Assembly: GCF_050320075.1 (NCBI RefSeq)
Contig: NZ_CP190018.1
DNA from: Escherichia coli
GTDB taxonomy: Bacteria > Pseudomonadota > Gammaproteobacteria > Enterobacterales > Enterobacteriaceae
Direction: 5' to 3' (one strand)
Length of the DNA: 64,000 nt
This document shows positions 17,041 through 53,124 of this stretch, in pieces. A model generated the notes under the pieces. That model was not told where the DNA came from. It did no database searches and saw only the letters and a list, made by a program, of their open reading frames with translations. Position 1 is the first letter of the stretch. Each line of letters starts with the position of its first letter. Position numbers and translations under genes: made by a program.

Positions 17041-17056
17041 CTGTATGGATTAACAG
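17041..17056 (-). promoter_or_regulatory. candidate LexA (SOS) box upstream of ftsK
   Basis: CTGTATGGATTAACAG fits CTGT-N8-ACAG, ~80-95 bp upstream of the ftsK start codon. Confidence 0.5.
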
Positions 17057-30195: not shown

Positions 30196-31307
30196 TGTGC
30201 AGCTCCTGGTTTGGCCTCACCAATCACCACTTCATCGCCCGCTTCCAGCCCTTTGACAATCTCAACATCGGTATCGTTACGTGCGCCAATCGTCACTTCA
30301 CGCTCGCGTGTTTCACCATTACGCAACAATTTGACTTTATAACGATTATCGCCAACCGGATCGCCTAACGCCGACAGAGGGATCGTCAGCACATTTTTCA
30401 CATCGGTGAGCTGAATATGCACTTGCGCGGTCATATCCAGCCGCAGCAAACCATTGGGGTTGGGGACTTCAAAACGGGCGTAATAGAAAATAGCGTCGTT
30501 AACCTTTTCCGGCGTCGGTAGCACATCCTTGATTTGCCCCTCGTAGCGCGTCAGCGGATCGCCAAGCACCGTAAACCAGGCTTTTTGCCCCGACTTCAGG
30601 TGGATTACATCCGCTTCAGAAACCTGCGCTTTTACCAGCATGGTGCTCATATCTGCCAGCGTCAGAATGTTCGGTGCTTGTTGTGCGGCAATCACCGTCT
30701 GGCCTTGCAGAGTGGTGATTTGCGTGACTTCCCCGGCCATCGGGGCAACGATGCGGGTGTAATCGAGATTGGTTTTAGCCGTATCGAGTGAGGCCTGATT
30801 GCGCTTGATTTGCGCGTCAATGGTGCCAATTTGCGCCTGTTTCACAGCCATCTCCGTCGCGGCGGTATCAAGATCCTGCTGTGAAACCGCTTGCGTTTGT
30901 GCAAGACGTTGCTGACGGGAATACGTCACCCGCGCCAGTTTCAGCTCCGCTTCCGCCTGCTGCCGCTGCGCGCGTAGCTCCATCAGCGTTGCTTCCACCT
31001 CCTTAATCTGGTTTTCAGCCTGTTCAGGATCAATAACCCCTAAAAGCTGGTCTTTTTTTACTTTATCGCCAATCGCCACCGACAGCGTTTTCAACTGACC
31101 GCTGACCTGCGCGCCCACATCAACCTTACGCAGCGCGTCCAGCTTTCCGGTCGCCAGCACGCTTTGCTGTAAATCACCGGGGCGCACAATCAGCGTCTGA
31201 TAAGTCGGCACGGGTGCGTTAAGAATTCTCCATAACGTAATCAGCCCGGCAATGACTATCACCAGCGCAATAACGTAACGCTTCTTCACGGTTTTCCGCT
31301 TTTTCAT
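30192..31307 (-). CDS. macA: macrolide efflux membrane-fusion protein
   Basis: ORF 30192..31334 trimmed to ATG at 31307 ([22 protein letters not shown]..., 371 aa). Confidence 0.93.
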
Positions 31308-31421
31308 AAATATTCTGAATACTCCATATGCCAATCCGGGTCATTAACTTCAACGAAATATCAACAAAACCCTAAAATTTACGTTAGTAATCACACTATT
31401 GATGTTTGGTTAAGATACGCA

Positions 31422-32414
31422 ATGGTGAAATCGACGTCATGTATAACCATTGATTTCATGAATATGTCGCAGCTAACTGAACGGACCTTTACGCCATCTG
31501 AATCTCTCAGCAGCCTGTCACTTTTTCTTAGTCTGGCACGTGGACAGTGTCGGCCGGGTAAATTCTGGCATCGCCGTAGTTTTCGCCAGAAATTTTTGCT
31601 GCGCTCGTTGATTATGCCGCGTTTAAGCGTTGAGTGGATGAACGAACTTTCCCACTGGCCTAATCTCAATGTGTTGTTAACGCGCCAGCCGCGACTGCCT
31701 GTGCGTCTGCATCGCCCTTACCTTGCGGCGAATCTTAGCCGTAAGCAATTGCTGGAGGCGTTACGTTACCATTATGCGTTACTCCGCGGGTGTATGTCGG
31801 CGGAAGAATTCAGCTTATATTTGAATACCCCCGGGCTGCAACTGGCGAAGCTGGAAGGCAAAAACGGCGAGCAGTTCACACTTGAGCTGACCATGATGAT
31901 CTCAATGGATAAAGAAGGTGACAGCACAATCCTGTTCCGCAACAGCGAAGGTATTCCTCTGGCAGAGATCACGTTTACCCTGTGTGAATATCAGGGGAAA
32001 AGAACAATGTTTATTGGCGGACTGCAAGGCGCAAAATGGGAAATTCCACATCAGGAAATCCAGAATGCGACGAAAGCCTGCCACGGGCTATTTCCCAAAC
32101 GCCTTGTGATGGAAGCAGCCTGTCTGTTTGCCCAACGTTTGCAGGTAGAGCAGATTATTGCCGTCAGCAATGAAACGCATATTTACCGCAGCCTGCGTTA
32201 TCGCGATAAAGAAGGCAAGATCCATGCCGATTACAACGCTTTCTGGGAGTCGGTTGGCGGCGTATGTGATGCTGAACGCCATTACCGCCTTCCGGCACAG
32301 ATAGCACGAAAAGAGATTGCCGAAATCGCCAGTAAAAAACGGGCTGAATACCGTCGGCGCTATGAGATGCTCGACGCTATTCAGCCACAAATGGCCACGA
32401 TGTTTCGCGGTTAA
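31422..32414 (+). CDS. ybjX: VirK/DUF535-family protein
   Basis: 330-aa ORF divergent from macA; start codon not verified (alternative ATG at the MSQLTERTF position). Confidence 0.8.
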   Translation: MVKSTSCITIDFMNMSQLTERTFTPSESLSSLSLFLSLARGQCRPGKFWHRRSFRQKFLLRSLIMPRLSVEWMNELSHWPNLNVLLTRQPRLPVRLHRPYLAANLSRKQLLEALRYHYALLRGCMSAEEFSLYLNTPGLQLAKLEGKNGEQFTLELTMMISMDKEGDSTILFRNSEGIPLAEITFTLCEYQGKRTMFIGGLQGAKWEIPHQEIQNATKACHGLFPKRLVMEAACLFAQRLQVEQIIAVSNETHIYRSLRYRDKEGKIHADYNAFWESVGGVCDAERHYRLPAQIARKEIAEIASKKRAEYRRRYEMLDAIQPQMATMFRG

Positions 32415-34069
32415 TCCGCGCGACCGCGCGCCAGCCACAGCACGCGTGAGAACATTTTTTTCAGCAGCGTCGGTACGGAATCCACACCACGACGTCCTGC
32501 CTCCATTGCCACTTCAATGGCAAGATCGGGTTTGGAAGAGCGATGGATCGCTTTCGAGATAATTTTGCGCAGATTCATCGGTACATTTTCCGGGATTTGC
32601 GCCACGCGGTGGAACACATCGGAAAATCCCTGGCGATACATAAAATGTTCCATATCCAGCGCCGGTAACGCCGTTAAATGTTCTCGTTCGGCTTCCCGAT
32701 CGTTATTCAACAGGCTGCGTACCGTAGCGGCATATTTCTTCCCTGCTTCATCGCCATCGACCAGTACATGCCATTCAATCCCCATTCGCCGGGCAAATTT
32801 AACCAGTGGCTTTAGCCCGGACTGGGCAAACTCAATGACCTTGATCCCTTCGGCATCAAAATGATGTCCGCACTGACGCGCCAGTTCATTGATAACCCAA
32901 GTTTCCGTTTCCCCTTCCACCAGCAGCCAGCAGCGTGCAAACAGCGATGACGGACGGTTAAAACGAATGTGAAAGGATATGCGTCGGCTATCTTCGGTAC
33001 TCAAGCCACTCGGCCCCAGACGCCAGGCGGCAACGCGCGAGGACTCACGTACCAGTCGGCAAACATGCTCTACCGGCGTTAACGAAAGCAACTCACCCGA
33101 GTTGGTGGTGGCAATGCGCTGCAATGGCAGAAGATTCAACAGATGCCAGGCAACTGAAAGCATAATGGGGTGTAAACGGGTTTCTGGATCTTCGATCAGC
33201 AACAATGGACGGGCGTCTTTATCCAGTCGCAATGTGCCTTTTGCCTGCAATAAAGTAGCAAACAGGCCGAGCAAAATAACCCGATACGAGCGCCCACCAG
33301 GTCGGTCAATCATCCGGTTGATGATATCCAGATAGCGCCAGCTTCGTTGCTCATTGCTGGCCCGCCGCCGCATTAAACGATATCGCGCCTGTCCGGCCCC
33401 CTGCTCAGAGAAATAATGCTCAAGCAGTTGCACCATTGCGGAAAGTCCCTGACGAATCTGCCCATCAGAGAGATTTTGCGGATGTGAGGATAACTCACGG
33501 GCGAGGAAATCGAGCTGGCGCGCGGTGACTTCCACATTAGGGACATTTGGCACCGTGCCGTTACGAATACGGCGCATAAAACGGGCATCACGCAAGCGCA
33601 GCACCGGCATTAAACGCACCAGATGGCGTGCCTGGTCGTTAATATCCTCGACATCAATCGGATGTCCGTCTTTATCGAGAAAACTGCGCAGTGTCATCAC
33701 GCTGCCGTCTTCCGCACTCTCCCCTTCCAGACGATAAAAAATACGGTGATAGCCATCGGTGCATGGCGTCCAGCACGCTTCCAGCGGCCGATAGCGGCGA
33801 ACCCGATGTCGGCCTGGCAGCGATTCGCGGAAGGTCAAAATAATATGCAGATGATGTTCTCGCCCGTTGATATCTCCCGGCGGGAACCAGAAATCGTCGC
33901 GCTCAAAATGGTAGAGATCTGATTCTGGCGATAGCAGCAGGGTTAAGGCGTCCAGCAAGCTGGATTTACCCCACGCGTTCTCCCCAATCAGGACGTTGTT
34001 TTGTTCCAGCATCAACGACAAACGGTTGATACCGCGAAAACCCACAATTTCAACGCGCTCAAGAATCAT
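32411..34069 (-). CDS. ybjD: OLD-family ATPase with C-terminal Toprim-type nuclease domain (putative)
   Basis: 552-aa ORF MILERVEIVGFRGINRLSLMLEQNNVLIGENAWGKSSLLDAL... (P-loop NAWGKSS); 4-nt convergent overlap with ybjX. Confidence 0.85.
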   Translation of the reverse strand: MILERVEIVGFRGINRLSLMLEQNNVLIGENAWGKSSLLDALTLLLSPESDLYHFERDDFWFPPGDINGREHHLHIILTFRESLPGRHRVRRYRPLEACWTPCTDGYHRIFYRLEGESAEDGSVMTLRSFLDKDGHPIDVEDINDQARHLVRLMPVLRLRDARFMRRIRNGTVPNVPNVEVTARQLDFLARELSSHPQNLSDGQIRQGLSAMVQLLEHYFSEQGAGQARYRLMRRRASNEQRSWRYLDIINRMIDRPGGRSYRVILLGLFATLLQAKGTLRLDKDARPLLLIEDPETRLHPIMLSVAWHLLNLLPLQRIATTNSGELLSLTPVEHVCRLVRESSRVAAWRLGPSGLSTEDSRRISFHIRFNRPSSLFARCWLLVEGETETWVINELARQCGHHFDAEGIKVIEFAQSGLKPLVKFARRMGIEWHVLVDGDEAGKKYAATVRSLLNNDREAEREHLTALPALDMEHFMYRQGFSDVFHRVAQIPENVPMNLRKIISKAIHRSSKPDLAIEVAMEAGRRGVDSVPTLLKKMFSRVLWLARGRAD

Positions 34070-34494
34070 ATCCCCTCCAGAAATATGTGACTTATCCTTT
34101 ACGCTGGCAGTATAACGGGAAAGGCCATGCTAATACGTGATGACATCACATTTAAGCATGGCAAATGTCTGAAAAATGAGCGAATAATCGCGTTATACTC
34201 CCTCTTGCTGATAAGCCTGCAAAAACAACAAAATCAAATAATTAGCATGATAAATTATTTTTTATTACGCCTAAAGGATTAAATCTTTTGCTTGCACTAC
34301 ACTGTCAATCAGACAAATGACTATATGGGGCAACCCGCTGTTGCCCTAAATCAAATTTACTGGATTTATTTATCTGGTGAATGACTCGCCTTCGTTTTTA
34401 AAATAGCCGCGCATTATTTCCGTCGTCACTTTTTTACGACGACCCTATAAAACGACCATATTTTTCACAGGGTCAATTTTTAATTGAGGTGGAT

Positions 34495-35190
34495 ATGTTC
34501 AGAAAATTAGCAGCTGAATGTTTTGGTACTTTCTGGCTTGTTTTTGGTGGCTGTGGTAGTGCCGTACTGGCCGCAGGCTTCCCGGAATTAGGCATTGGTT
34601 TTGCCGGCGTGGCGCTGGCATTCGGTCTGACCGTTCTGACGATGGCCTTTGCTGTTGGTCATATTTCTGGTGGTCATTTTAACCCGGCGGTCACTATTGG
34701 TTTATGGGCTGGCGGACGTTTCCCGGCAAAAGAAGTCGTTGGCTACGTAATTGCCCAGGTTGTCGGCGGTATTGTTGCGGCGGCGCTGCTGTATTTAATT
34801 GCCAGTGGTAAAACGGGTTTTGACGCGGCAGCCAGCGGTTTTGCTTCTAACGGTTATGGCGAGCATTCGCCAGGCGATTATTCCATGCTTTCCGCGCTGG
34901 TAGTTGAACTGGTATTGAGTGCAGGTTTCCTGCTGGTGATCCACGGCGCAACCGACAAATTCGCTCCTGCTGGTTTTGCGCCGATCGCTATTGGTCTGGC
35001 CTTAACCCTGATTCACTTAATCAGTATTCCGGTGACTAACACTTCTGTTAACCCGGCGCGCAGCACCGCGGTTGCTATCTTCCAGGGCGGCTGGGCGTTA
35101 GAACAACTGTGGTTCTTCTGGGTGGTGCCAATTGTCGGCGGTATTATCGGTGGTCTGATTTACCGGACTCTACTGGAAAAGCGTAATTAA
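34495..35190 (+). CDS. aqpZ: aquaporin Z
   Basis: ORF 34489..35190 trimmed to ATG at 34495 ([24 protein letters not shown]...); two NPA motifs (HFNPAVT, VNPARS). Confidence 0.96.
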
Positions 35191-35199
35191 TTAACGCAG

Positions 35200-35229
35200 A
35201 AGGCCTGGCGCAATGTCAGGCCTTTTTTA
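35200..35229 (+). terminator. rho-independent terminator downstream of aqpZ
   Basis: Hairpin aggcctg...caggcct followed by T6. Confidence 0.8.
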
Positions 35230-35282
35230 AATATATTGATTCATCTTCCTGTTGCGCTCCTTGATGTGTTAAGCCACATATA

Positions 35283-35513
35283 GTCACTGGCGCAGGGAGC
35301 GCGCAGGGGGCGGCCAATCGCCGCCGCCCCCTGCACCCCCGGGCTCTGGCGAACAAAATCGCCGCTGCGCGGTGCCCTCGACTTATCCCTTACGGCTACC
35401 GGGTCGGGCGCGAGGTAACATCCCTGTAAAACGCGCCCTCAGCCCACATCCATGTGGGCTGCCCCGGCCTTCAGGGAACGCCTCGGCGATTTTGACGCCA
35501 CCAACACCGGTGC
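35283..35513. repeat. GC-rich (~70%) structured intergenic element with several palindromes and an imperfect ~17-bp inverted repeat
   Basis: Palindrome gcagggggcgg-N10-ccgccccctgc (35303-35334); perfect 22-bp palindrome cagcccacat-cc-atgtgggctg (35440-35461); inverted repeat ggcgaacaaaatcgccg (35349-35365) / cggcgattttgacgcc (35486-35501). Confidence 0.55.
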
Positions 35514-35673
35514 GGTTTGTAATTAAAGCGCAAGAATATCTTTAAATGAAAATGAATACCCTACCGATCCTTATGCATAACATTTCCTTTTAATTGCAAC
35601 TTTACTCGTCCTTCCGCTTTCAGTAGTGTGTCATCGCGCATTTCGACTTCATCTTTGCAAGGACTGGGTTTTC

Positions 35674-36573
35674 ATGTTTTCTGGGCTGTTAATCATTCTG
35701 GTTCCCCTGATTGTGGGTTACCTCATTCCTCTTCGCCAAAAAGCTGCATTAAGAGTTATTAATCAGCTATTAAGCTGGATGGTTTACCTCATTCTCTTTT
35801 TTATGGGTATCAGTCTGGCGTTTCTCGATAACCTCGCCAGTAACCTGTTGGCGATTCTGCATTATTCCGCCGTCAGCATTACCATTATTTTACTCTGCAA
35901 TATTATTGCGTTGTTGTGGCTGGAGCGCGGTCTGCCGTGGCGCAACCACCACCAGCAAGAAAAACTCCCGTCGCGTATTGCGATGGCGCTGGAGTCGCTA
36001 AAACTGTGCGGCGTAGTAGTGATTGGTTTTGCCATTGGCCTGAGTGGACTGGCTTTCTTACAACATGCGACCGAAGCCAGTGAATACACCTTAATTCTGC
36101 TACTTTTCCTCGTCGGTATTCAGTTGCGCAATAATGGCATGACCTTAAAGCAGATTGTCCTTAATCGCCGGGGAATGATTGTCGCCGTGGTGGTGGTTGC
36201 CAGTTCATTAATTGGTGGTTTAATTAACGCCTTTATTCTTGATCTTCCCATCAATACCGCGCTGGCAATGGCCTCTGGTTTCGGCTGGTATTCTCTTTCC
36301 GGTATTTTATTGACTGAATCTTTTGGTCCGGTAATCGGGAGCGCGGCGTTTTTTAATGATCTGGCCCGTGAGCTGATTGCAATTATGTTGATCCCTGGGC
36401 TGATTCGCCGCAGCCGCTCTACCGCACTGGGCTTATGCGGTGCGACGTCGATGGATTTCACCCTGCCCGTTCTTCAACGTACTGGCGGGCTGGATATGGT
36501 CCCGGCGGCAATTGTTCACGGTTTTATTCTTAGCCTGTTAGTGCCGATCCTCATCGCCTTTTTCTCTGCGTAA
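35674..36573 (+). CDS. ybjE: lysine exporter LysO
   Basis: ORF 35626..36573 trimmed to ATG at 35674 (MFSGLLIILVPLIVGYLIPLRQ..., 299 aa); polytopic membrane protein. Confidence 0.88.
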   Translation: MFSGLLIILVPLIVGYLIPLRQKAALRVINQLLSWMVYLILFFMGISLAFLDNLASNLLAILHYSAVSITIILLCNIIALLWLERGLPWRNHHQQEKLPSRIAMALESLKLCGVVVIGFAIGLSGLAFLQHATEASEYTLILLLFLVGIQLRNNGMTLKQIVLNRRGMIVAVVVVASSLIGGLINAFILDLPINTALAMASGFGWYSLSGILLTESFGPVIGSAAFFNDLARELIAIMLIPGLIRRSRSTALGLCGATSMDFTLPVLQRTGGLDMVPAAIVHGFILSLLVPILIAFFSA

Positions 36574-52392: not shown

Positions 52393-53124
52393 ATGAAAAA
52401 GTTAGTTCTTGCCGCTTTACTTGCTTCCTTTACTTTCGGTGCTTCTGCCGCAGAGAAAATCAATTTTGGCGTTTCAGCCACCTATCCACCCTTTGAATCT
52501 ATAGGTGCTAATAATGAGATTGTCGGCTTTGATATCGATCTGGCAAAAGCCTTGTGCAAACAAATGCAGGCAGAATGTACTTTTACGAATCACGCGTTCG
52601 ACAGCCTGATCCCGTCACTGAAATTCAGAAAATATGACGCCGTAATCTCCGGTATGGATATCACCCCGGAGCGTAGCAAACAGGTATCGTTTACCACGCC
52701 CTACTATGAAAACTCAGCCGTCGTGATTGCCAAAAAAGATACCTACAAAACGTTTGCCGATCTGAAAGGCAAACGTATTGGGATGGAAAACGGCACCACG
52801 CACCAGAAATATATTCAGGAGCAGCACCCGGAAGTGAAAACTGTCTCCTATGACAGTTATCAGAATGCCTTTATCGACCTGAAAAATGGTCGTATTGATG
52901 GGGTATTTGGTGACACAGCGGTGGTAAACGAATGGCTGAAAACCAATCCACAACTGGGCGTTGCGACTGAGAAAGTGACCGATCCGCAGTACTTCGGCAC
53001 CGGCCTGGGTATCGCTGTACGTCCGGATAACAAAGCTCTGCTGGAGAAACTGAATAACGCGCTGGCGGCAATTAAAGCTGACGGTACATATCAGAAAATC
53101 AATGACCAGTGGTTCCCACAGTAA
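52393..53124 (+). CDS. artJ: arginine ABC transporter periplasmic binding protein
   Basis: ORF 52342..53124 trimmed to ATG at 52393 (MKKLVLAALLASFTFGASA..., 243 aa); paralog of artI. Confidence 0.94.
   Translation: MKKLVLAALLASFTFGASAAEKINFGVSATYPPFESIGANNEIVGFDIDLAKALCKQMQAECTFTNHAFDSLIPSLKFRKYDAVISGMDITPERSKQVSFTTPYYENSAVVIAKKDTYKTFADLKGKRIGMENGTTHQKYIQEQHPEVKTVSYDSYQNAFIDLKNGRIDGVFGDTAVVNEWLKTNPQLGVATEKVTDPQYFGTGLGIAVRPDNKALLEKLNNALAAIKADGTYQKINDQWFPQ

Follow-up and report, generated by a model that had tools for sequence, protein, structure and literature searches.

The 64,000-nucleotide stretch of Escherichia coli contig NZ_CP190018.1 (assembly GCF_050320075.1) analyzed here, hereafter the window, carries the gene ybjD, for which a paper of May 2026 proposes the name oldB (PMC13261556). 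We confirm that YbjD is a protein of the OLD (overcoming lysogenization defect) family, with an ABC-type (ATP-binding cassette) ATPase and a Toprim domain in a single polypeptide, and show that its gene forms part of the Enterobacterales core and is inherited vertically; recognizable relatives extend to Aeromonas, Vibrio and Betaproteobacteria. Typical OLD genes are patchily distributed and carried on mobile elements, and the distribution of ybjD is the opposite of this usual pattern. The interpretation that we favor, at slightly better than even chances, is that YbjD is a nucleotide-gated nuclease with a conserved chromosomal role that differs from the part played by typical arms-race modules. 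The OLD identity of ybjD and its testing against phages are already known, and the annotation as such is not new: YbjD (b0876) is the KEGG seed of the 2019 OLD classification, where E. coli is listed among the lone-gene Class 1 cases (PMC6755086).

The ybjD open reading frame (ORF) is intact, starts with ATG and encodes 552 amino acids (aa) on the minus strand (32411..34069 in the ORF list). Its features are given below, with residues aligned to those of the structurally characterized TsOLD of Thermus scotoductus (PDB 6P74), BpOLD of Burkholderia pseudomallei and GajA of the Gabija system.

32411..34069, minus strand: ybjD (oldB) coding sequence, 552 aa plus stop (ORF list, RefSeq annotation of identical DNA, Pfam)
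33005..34069, minus strand: ABC/SMC-Rad50-type ATPase region including the helical insert, aa 1-355
33959..33985, minus strand: Walker A motif (P-loop) GENAWGKSS, aa 29-37, with K35, which aligns to TsOLD K34 and GajA K35
33215..33592, minus strand: helical segment inserted between the lobes of the ATPase, aa ~160-285, presumed dimerization domain (AlphaFold2 helices)
33167..33205, minus strand: Walker B motif and D-loop LLLIEDPETRLHP with E293, D294, E296 and H300 (TsOLD E276 corresponds to E293, H283 to H300)
33092..33109, minus strand: H-loop region TTNSGE with N323 instead of His, aligned to TsOLD 'THS' (H310)
32645..33004, minus strand: Toprim nuclease domain, aa 356-475 (Pfam core 376-440)
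32903..32917, minus strand: glutamates of the Toprim domain, E385-G-E387-T-E389, for metal A and metal B, aligned to TsOLD E377/D381 and BpOLD E400/E404
32750..32758, minus strand: DxD motif D438-G-D440, metal A, aligned to TsOLD D431/D433
32648..32656, minus strand: D472-M-E474, putative ligands of metal B, corresponding to S478-x-E480 of TsOLD (motif, position, invariance)
32414..32644, minus strand: C-terminal helical region, aa 476-552 (AlphaFold2 model, PADLOC alignment)
32528..32536, minus strand: S512-K513-P514, with K513 as the putative catalytic lysine, analogue of BpOLD K562 and GajA K541

Pfam assigns aa 1-375 to DUF2813 (E 2e-160) and aa 376-440 to OLD-like_TOPRIM (PF20469, E 4e-16), with additional weak matches to AAA_15 and the SMC_N head. 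The family profile, which comprises 61 members 28-54% identical to YbjD and is the basis of all counts out of 61 below, matches the solved structures of TsOLD and GajA at 1.7e-21 and 1e-19, respectively. The AlphaFold2 model of YbjD (predicted local distance difference test, pLDDT, 88.5; predicted template modeling score, pTM, 0.88) has GajA and TsOLD as its top Foldseek matches. The initial annotation, made from the DNA sequence, had described a 552-aa protein with the P-loop GENAWGKSS and a C-terminal Toprim region following the ATPase, the architecture of OLD proteins; the P-loop is where it was said to be, and Pfam, profile comparison and Foldseek agree on the architecture. Within the insert between the ATPase lobes, the model contains helices at aa 177-195, 202-220, 242-255 and 260-277, and low-confidence loops at aa 163-175 and 223-241; by analogy with TsOLD, this insert is presumed to mediate dimerization. 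The pentapeptide LSDGQ (aa 200-204) was considered as a candidate ABC signature and judged coincidental, as it falls inside the helical insert, some 90 residues ahead of Walker B; it is probably not the signature because the signature-like 'GHGTQ' of P2 Old aligns with 'PGGRS' at aa 257-261.

By genomic context, YbjD belongs to Class 1: the locus contains no UvrD-like helicase and no retron reverse transcriptase or non-coding RNA, and the ATPase and Toprim domains are unsplit. As the initial annotation had it, ybjD is a lone gene between ybjX and aqpZ, without partner genes, in both the ORF list and the RefSeq annotation. The C-terminal third of the protein, however, looks more similar to the Class 2 enzymes GajA and BpOLD than to TsOLD. 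TsOLD was reported to lack, as a structural hallmark, a helical domain after the Toprim domain, whereas YbjD has four helices between aa 473 and 547 (473-490, 500-510, 513-527 and 534-547 in the AlphaFold2 model, pLDDT >90). The alignments of P2 Old and TsOLD to YbjD end near aa 442-453, and that of the PADLOC Old model (2e-24) ends at aa 473; the best PADLOC model is GajA (PDLC00094, 7e-80), and the GajA models align through aa 539-549. The C-terminal region of BpOLD aligns with YbjD over 164 of 204 residues. This mixed character agrees with the published phylogeny of the family, in which Class 2 OLDs are nested within Class 1.

In the TsOLD study, the ATPase residues of Class 1 are K34, H140, E276, H283 and H310, and the nuclease site consists of metal A (E377/D431/D433) and metal B (D381/S478/E480) ligands and is completed by R487. 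We mapped these residues to YbjD by profile alignment, which ends at YbjD aa 442, and counted their conservation in the wider family and in 78 Enterobacterales orthologs, the basis of all counts out of 78. In the ATPase, K35 is present in 78/78 orthologs and in 55/61 members of the wider family, E293 in 56/61 and H300 in 60/61. Asparagine in the H-loop, as at position 323, is a common Class 1 variant; across the family, this position is occupied by N in 36 members, H in 10, Q in nine, Y in five and A in one. In the Toprim domain, E385, E387 and E389 are found in 61/61 family members, D438 in 60/61 and D440 in 61/61. The pair D472-x-E474 (60/61 and 61/61, respectively) was assigned from its motif, position and invariance because the TsOLD profile alignment stops at aa 442. 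The check proposed in the initial annotation, a search for the active-site residues, thus finds the Toprim catalytic residues in 60-61 of the 61 family members. In Class 2 enzymes, the catalytic lysine comes from the C-terminal helical domain (K562 of BpOLD, K541 of GajA). In YbjD, the S-K513-P motif opens the third of the four C-terminal helices, K513 and P514 are conserved in 61/61 family members, and K513 is the proposed counterpart of the Class 2 catalytic lysine. The position equivalent to TsOLD R487 is R479, which was rejected as a conserved catalytic residue as it is arginine in only 15/61 members. All aligned and proposed active-site residues of YbjD are present in 78/78 Enterobacterales orthologs, and across the family, the Toprim residues are more strictly kept than the P-loop lysine.

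Among complete E. coli genomes, the ybjD locus is near-universal (5424 of 5426). For the relatives, we scanned one genome per species, which yielded more than 490 loci, and assessed synteny, distance and intactness in the best 80. These best 80 loci all come from Enterobacterales, and identity declines in step with phylogeny. YbjD is 97-99% identical in Escherichia, 90-92% in Citrobacter and Salmonella, 84-86% in Klebsiella and Enterobacter, 80% in Buttiauxella, 75% in Mangrovibacter, 66-68% in Pectobacterium, Brenneria and Serratia, 65% in Yersinia, 56% in Proteus, 45.5% in Aeromonas, 42-43% in Vibrio, 40% in Motilimonas and 39% in the betaproteobacterium Chitinilyticum. The gene order hcp-lysO-aqpZ-ybjD-ybjX-macAB is largely retained across the 80 species, with hcp found in 73 of the loci, macA in 70, lysO in 69, macB in 67, aqpZ in 62 and ybjX in 57. 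In pairwise distances, YbjD is correlated with Hcp (r 0.89), LysO (0.88), MacB (0.79) and, more weakly, YbjX (0.53). There is no island signal at ybjD because its GC content, 0.534, compares with 0.510 for the window. Prevalence, conserved synteny and co-divergence all bear out the earlier view of ybjD as a backbone gene rather than an acquired island, and the accessory, patchy or mobile element-borne pattern of defense genes is not what is seen here.

Intact orthologs were found in 78 of the 80 loci. The sole apparent frameshift among the 80 is in Citrobacter amalonaticus AUH_CA_2023_1 (L072 6001-7658), where the locus is two nucleotides longer and the tblastn match is split; either a real pseudogene or an error of assembly may be behind it.

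Among 50,697 phage records, no ybjD ortholog was detected; the sole matches are P2 Old, with 28% identity over a third of YbjD, and one 2-kb record. The latter, an unannotated record of 2060 bp (OR845570.1, 'Escherichia phage ECO95 1-6-1'), contains the first 98 ybjD codons at 91% identity and is most likely host DNA. Near-identical copies in PLSDB are in records mostly of 0.7-5 Mb, with four of 42-88 kb. One of the small records, the 88-kb circle NZ_CP134387.1 ('plasmid pMTY11352_3', L087), was inspected and is a chromosomal fragment, with the contiguous block poxB-hcr-hcp-lysO-aqpZ-ybjD-ybjX-macAB-cspD-clpSA-infA-aat. Several of the ybjD-bearing PLSDB records (H15-H20, H25, H29-H31) are Mb-sized chromosomes or chromosomal fragments labeled as plasmids. 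With no ortholog in the phage records, and with the inspected 88-kb plasmid being a piece of chromosome, phage- or plasmid-borne copies of ybjD were rejected as genuine.

Selection on ybjD was estimated as the ratio of nonsynonymous to synonymous substitution rates (dN/dS, or omega; NG86). The comparison with E. albertii (dS 0.78) gives an omega of 0.015, and those with Citrobacter, Salmonella, Klebsiella and Enterobacter, in which dS is saturated, give 0.03-0.07. The gene-wide range, 0.015-0.07, is similar to those of hcp, macB, aqpZ and lysO, whereas that of ybjX is considerably higher (0.06-0.27). Within YbjD, the Toprim region generally has the lowest omega (0.004-0.06, and 0.03 or less in nine of the 10 comparisons), and the helical insert generally has the highest (0.02-0.10), reaching 0.10 as the fastest-evolving part of the protein.

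The label 'uncharacterized' given to ybjD in the initial annotation is out of date in view of the 2019 classification (PMC6755086) and the May 2026 study (PMC13261556), which also reports the phage tests that had been suggested, so that both the idea and the tests are already in print. According to this study, ybjD is expressed in wild-type E. coli K-12, and its deletion in the Keio strain leaves the plating of 68 BASEL phages unchanged (PMC13261556). When pBAD-ybjD is induced with 0.001% arabinose, Bas18 and Bas20 plaque less well and Bas64-68 form smaller plaques, whereas over-expression at 0.01% arabinose is cytotoxic (PMC13261556). The over-expression phage phenotypes are retained in a triple acidic Toprim mutant and on deletion of aa 378-552; they require aa 1-377 and are lost when the ATPase region is deleted (PMC13261556). 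The K35A mutant keeps the phage phenotype and is more cytotoxic (PMC13261556). In the recBC-ts strain SK129, YbjD is not lethal, whereas P2 Old is (PMC13261556). In the literature searched, the term 'DUF2813' occurs in no paper, and no paper on the core status of ybjD was found.

These observations are in tension: the sole published phenotype is independent of the nuclease, yet the Toprim site is near-invariant and generally has the lowest dN/dS in the protein. The single published assay does not require the Toprim domain, which nevertheless holds the residues kept most strictly across the family; this points to an undiscovered native function, and because the nuclease domain and its residues are generally under the tightest purifying selection, we infer that this function depends on cutting nucleic acid. 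As a core, vertically inherited gene, ybjD is also a poor fit for a mobile anti-phage weapon of the typical kind. The native role of YbjD is therefore probably a conserved chromosomal one, in nucleic acid processing or surveillance, and not that of a typical arms-race defense module. The Toprim-independent effect on phages would then probably be a by-product of the ATPase/insert region binding or occluding a target.

In mechanistic terms, YbjD combines an SMC/Rad50/RecF-like ABC head carrying a dimerization-type insert with a Toprim two-metal nuclease domain and a short C-terminal helical bundle, and it most likely works as a nucleotide-gated nickase or nuclease. GajA is inhibited by ATP. By analogy, ATP bound to the head may keep YbjD in a harmless state, and the head, when nucleotide-free or engaged with substrate, would clamp nucleic acid. 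The Toprim domain would then cut, using E385/D438/D440 at metal A, E389/D472/E474 at metal B, and K513. The substrate could be DNA, or RNA, such as the tRNA that is the target of P2 Old.

Several points weigh against this interpretation as a whole. Of the dN/dS comparisons, only that with E. albertii gives a clean omega because dS exceeds 1 in most of the others. In the literature searched, we found no biochemistry on YbjD; ybjD is non-essential, and no repair, replication or growth phenotype is reported there. No LexA box lies upstream of the gene. Core, vertically inherited genes can still defend, and every bacterial OLD protein so far characterized is, to our knowledge, defensive. Finally, over-expressed YbjD gives a real, if narrow, anti-phage phenotype (PMC13261556).

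A more specific version of the chromosomal reading is suggested by Cran1 of Saccharolobus (archaeal OLD clade U11), an essential cell-cycle nickase that is vertically inherited and is not a defense protein. We tentatively propose, as an idea with clearly less than even chances, that the YbjD/DUF2813 clade is the bacterial counterpart of Cran1, that is, an OLD nickase domesticated long ago in Gammaproteobacteria for housekeeping of chromosome or RNA. If so, the nuclease site, which would use K513 of the helical domain in the manner of Class 2 enzymes, would be the selected activity and the anti-phage effect of over-expression would be incidental, whereas 'Class 1' would be a label of context only, hiding a distinct non-defensive OLD lineage.

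The strongest of the rival explanations, which we regard as unlikely but worth serious attention, holds that ybjD is a stand-alone Class 1 defense gene like Vc OLD of Vibrio cholerae and P2 Old, acting at its native level, killing through its nuclease and targeting other phages or mobile elements. YbjD has the OLD architecture with a complete active site, both the GajA and the Old models of PADLOC match it, mild induction lowers plaquing of Bas18 and Bas20 and shrinks the plaques of Bas64-68, and there is the precedent of Vc OLD, a chromosomal Class 1 nickase which defends against phages, needs both its ATPase and its nuclease residues for this and is countered by a phage inhibitor. However, the Keio deletion is unchanged in its response to the 68 BASEL phages, and the induced phenotype is independent of the Toprim domain, the acidic residues and K35. 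Nor does the evolution of the gene look like that of a defense system: typical OLD genes are patchy and mobile, whereas ybjD is near-universal in E. coli, syntenic across an order, located outside any defense island, absent from the phage records and without a genuine plasmid-borne ortholog among the records inspected, and it co-diverges with its housekeeping neighbors, shows an omega of roughly 0.02-0.07 and has no surface that evolves fast. The proposal of a single-gene defense candidate in the initial annotation thus survives, because the catalytic residues are present on alignment and an effect of over-expression on phages is on record; 'defense nuclease' is not established as the native role, because the phenotype is seen only upon induction and requires neither the Toprim domain nor K35, and deletion has no phage phenotype.

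A second rival, that ybjD is an orphan gajA which lost its gajB or borrows a superfamily 1 helicase (UvrD/Rep) in trans, is highly improbable. Its attractions are the best PADLOC match, to GajA through the C-terminus, the place of GajA as top structural match, an invariant C-terminal lysine resembling K541 of GajA and K562 of BpOLD, and the nesting of Class 2 inside Class 1 in phylogenies. However, no helicase is encoded within the ybjD locus, in either the window or the RefSeq annotation, so that the adjacent GajB that defines Gabija is lacking and membership in this system was rejected, and there is no evidence for a partner in trans. Nine distant family members (from Vibrio, Motilimonas, Chitinilyticum and metagenomic contigs) are likewise all lone genes amid housekeeping neighborhoods, with neither a GajB helicase nor any recurrent partner, which argues that the lone state is ancestral for the DUF2813 clade and not the result of a recent loss. 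The third rival, that ybjD is a functionless relic and its phenotypes are the non-specific toxicity of an over-expressed DNA-binding ATPase, would account for the silent deletion and for the cytotoxicity at 0.01% arabinose and is nearly negligible, being effectively refuted by dN/dS (0.015-0.07) and conservation, with 78/80 orthologs intact, catalytic residues invariant over large evolutionary distances and the gene expressed in the wild type.

Some distant relatives of YbjD deviate in context or size. The gene of one distant DUF2813 protein (P0184; L090 832-4882, L091 801-4851) shares its strand with that of a family-B DNA polymerase (Pol II-like), which it precedes by 47 nt, and directly follows a PhdYeFM/PIN toxin-antitoxin pair, a single case that does not recur in the other neighborhoods examined. 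Giant DUF2813/OLD relatives of 815-1867 aa (P0149, P0162, P0163, P0165, P0175/P0292 and P0166) match YbjD at 40-45% identity across aa ~255-500; past the Walker A head, they carry a long unassigned insertion, and most also have a C-terminal extension of 500-1100 aa with no Pfam match. One of these giant genes (P0175/P0292; L083 6001-10446) is a lone gene beside that for an MscK-like channel.

The surroundings of ybjD are ordinary for E. coli. Several E. coli chromosomes share the 4-kb region surrounding the gene at 100% identity; in these, RefSeq names the gene 'ybjD: ATP-dependent endonuclease' and annotates no further gene or feature between ybjX and aqpZ. The ybjX gene (DUF535/VirK) is convergent with ybjD and ends at 32414, so that the two stop codons overlap in the palindrome TTAA at 32411-32414; aqpZ, for an aquaporin of the MIP family (34489-35190), is divergent from ybjD, and macAB, lysO and hcp lie beyond these two neighbors. 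We rejected ybjX as a functional partner: it is absent from 23 of the 80 loci, its omega reaches 0.27, and its distances correlate with those of YbjD at only r 0.53. Outside Escherichia, YbjX is 46-75% identical, as compared with 66-92% for YbjD. Two non-coding features accompany the gene.

34070..34488, no strand: AT-rich divergent intergenic region (GC 0.38) common to ybjD and aqpZ, presumed site of the ybjD promoter, with a Shine-Dalgarno sequence at 34074-34078
32338..32355, minus strand: predicted terminator-like hairpin and T-run for ybjD, 56 nt past the ybjD stop, inside the 3' end of ybjX (pattern scan)

The Shine-Dalgarno sequence is GGAGG, located 5 nt 5' of the ybjD ATG. Upstream of ybjD, no consensus sigma-70 promoter was found at the scan threshold, and the LexA box CTGT-N8-ACAG, with up to one mismatch allowed, was not found in the ybjD-aqpZ intergenic region. 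Across the whole window, 24 LexA-like matches were observed as against 18.5 +/- 4.1 expected, that is, not above chance, and SOS regulation of ybjD was rejected. Exact CTGT-N8-ACAG palindromes are found at 17041-17056 and 52841-52856, both distant from ybjD. The intergenic region 34070-34488 contains no credible small ORF, and an Rfam scan of 31000-36000 found no family, only a sub-threshold TwoAYGGAY match away from ybjD. With no extra RefSeq feature either, a hidden partner gene or RNA for ybjD was rejected. The TwoAYGGAY match (35356-35495, minus strand, between aqpZ and lysO; 30.6 bits versus a gathering score of 43, E 0.07) is probably due to chance or to a repetitive extragenic element. 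A terminator-like hairpin for ybjX lies within ybjD (32714-32731, plus strand). With each terminator located inside the opposite gene, the 3' transcripts of ybjX and ybjD should overlap, which fits the listing of the pair as a convergent excludon (PMC12288877).

Knowing what the YbjD nuclease cuts in E. coli cells, with or without stress, would remove one more y-gene from those still lacking a function and would test whether OLD proteins have non-defense roles in bacteria, as recently shown in archaea. From the SMC, Rad50, RecF and RecN heads, YbjD differs in lacking a long coiled coil, in being fused to a Toprim nuclease and in its degenerate ABC signature, as reported for Class 1 OLDs. TsOLD is likewise the product of a lone gene, with an ABC ATPase that contains a dimerization insert and is joined to a Toprim domain, and its residues K34/E276/H283/H310 and E377/D381/D431/D433 correspond to K35/E293/H300/N323 and E385/E389/D438/D440 of YbjD; the sequence alignment ends at YbjD aa 442, beyond which TsOLD has no C-terminal helical domain and uses R487, whereas YbjD has its four helices and the invariant K513. 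GajA and BpOLD share with YbjD the C-terminal helices, with a lysine whose catalytic role is putative in YbjD, GajA also being the best PADLOC model, and the restraint of GajA by ATP parallels the greater toxicity of YbjD K35A; in structural alignments, identity is 12-17% to GajA and 21% to the C-terminal region of BpOLD. However, GajA belongs to an island-borne two-gene system, whereas YbjD is core chromosomal and has no GajB/UvrD-like helicase partner.

P2 Old, which is triggered by inactivation of RecBC and cleaves tRNA-ThrU in its anticodon stem, is a lone gene whose domains follow the order seen in YbjD (hhalign probability 97.8%; 28% identical residues across aa 252-440); unlike the chromosomal YbjD, which is non-lethal in the recBC-ts host, it is prophage-borne, and the C-termini of the two are not alignable. 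The likeness to Cran1, as judged from published descriptions, lies in vertical inheritance throughout the clade, in parallel with the species tree, in an apparently non-defensive nature and in over-expression toxicity through the ATPase domain, whereas Cran1 is archaeal, essential and cell cycle-regulated and ybjD is dispensable. Vc OLD resembles YbjD as a bacterially encoded lone OLD protein with RecBCD-independent activity. The YbjD phenotype, however, needs neither the Toprim domain nor K35, and Vc OLD belongs to a diversified and patchily distributed clade, whereas YbjD is core and vertically inherited.

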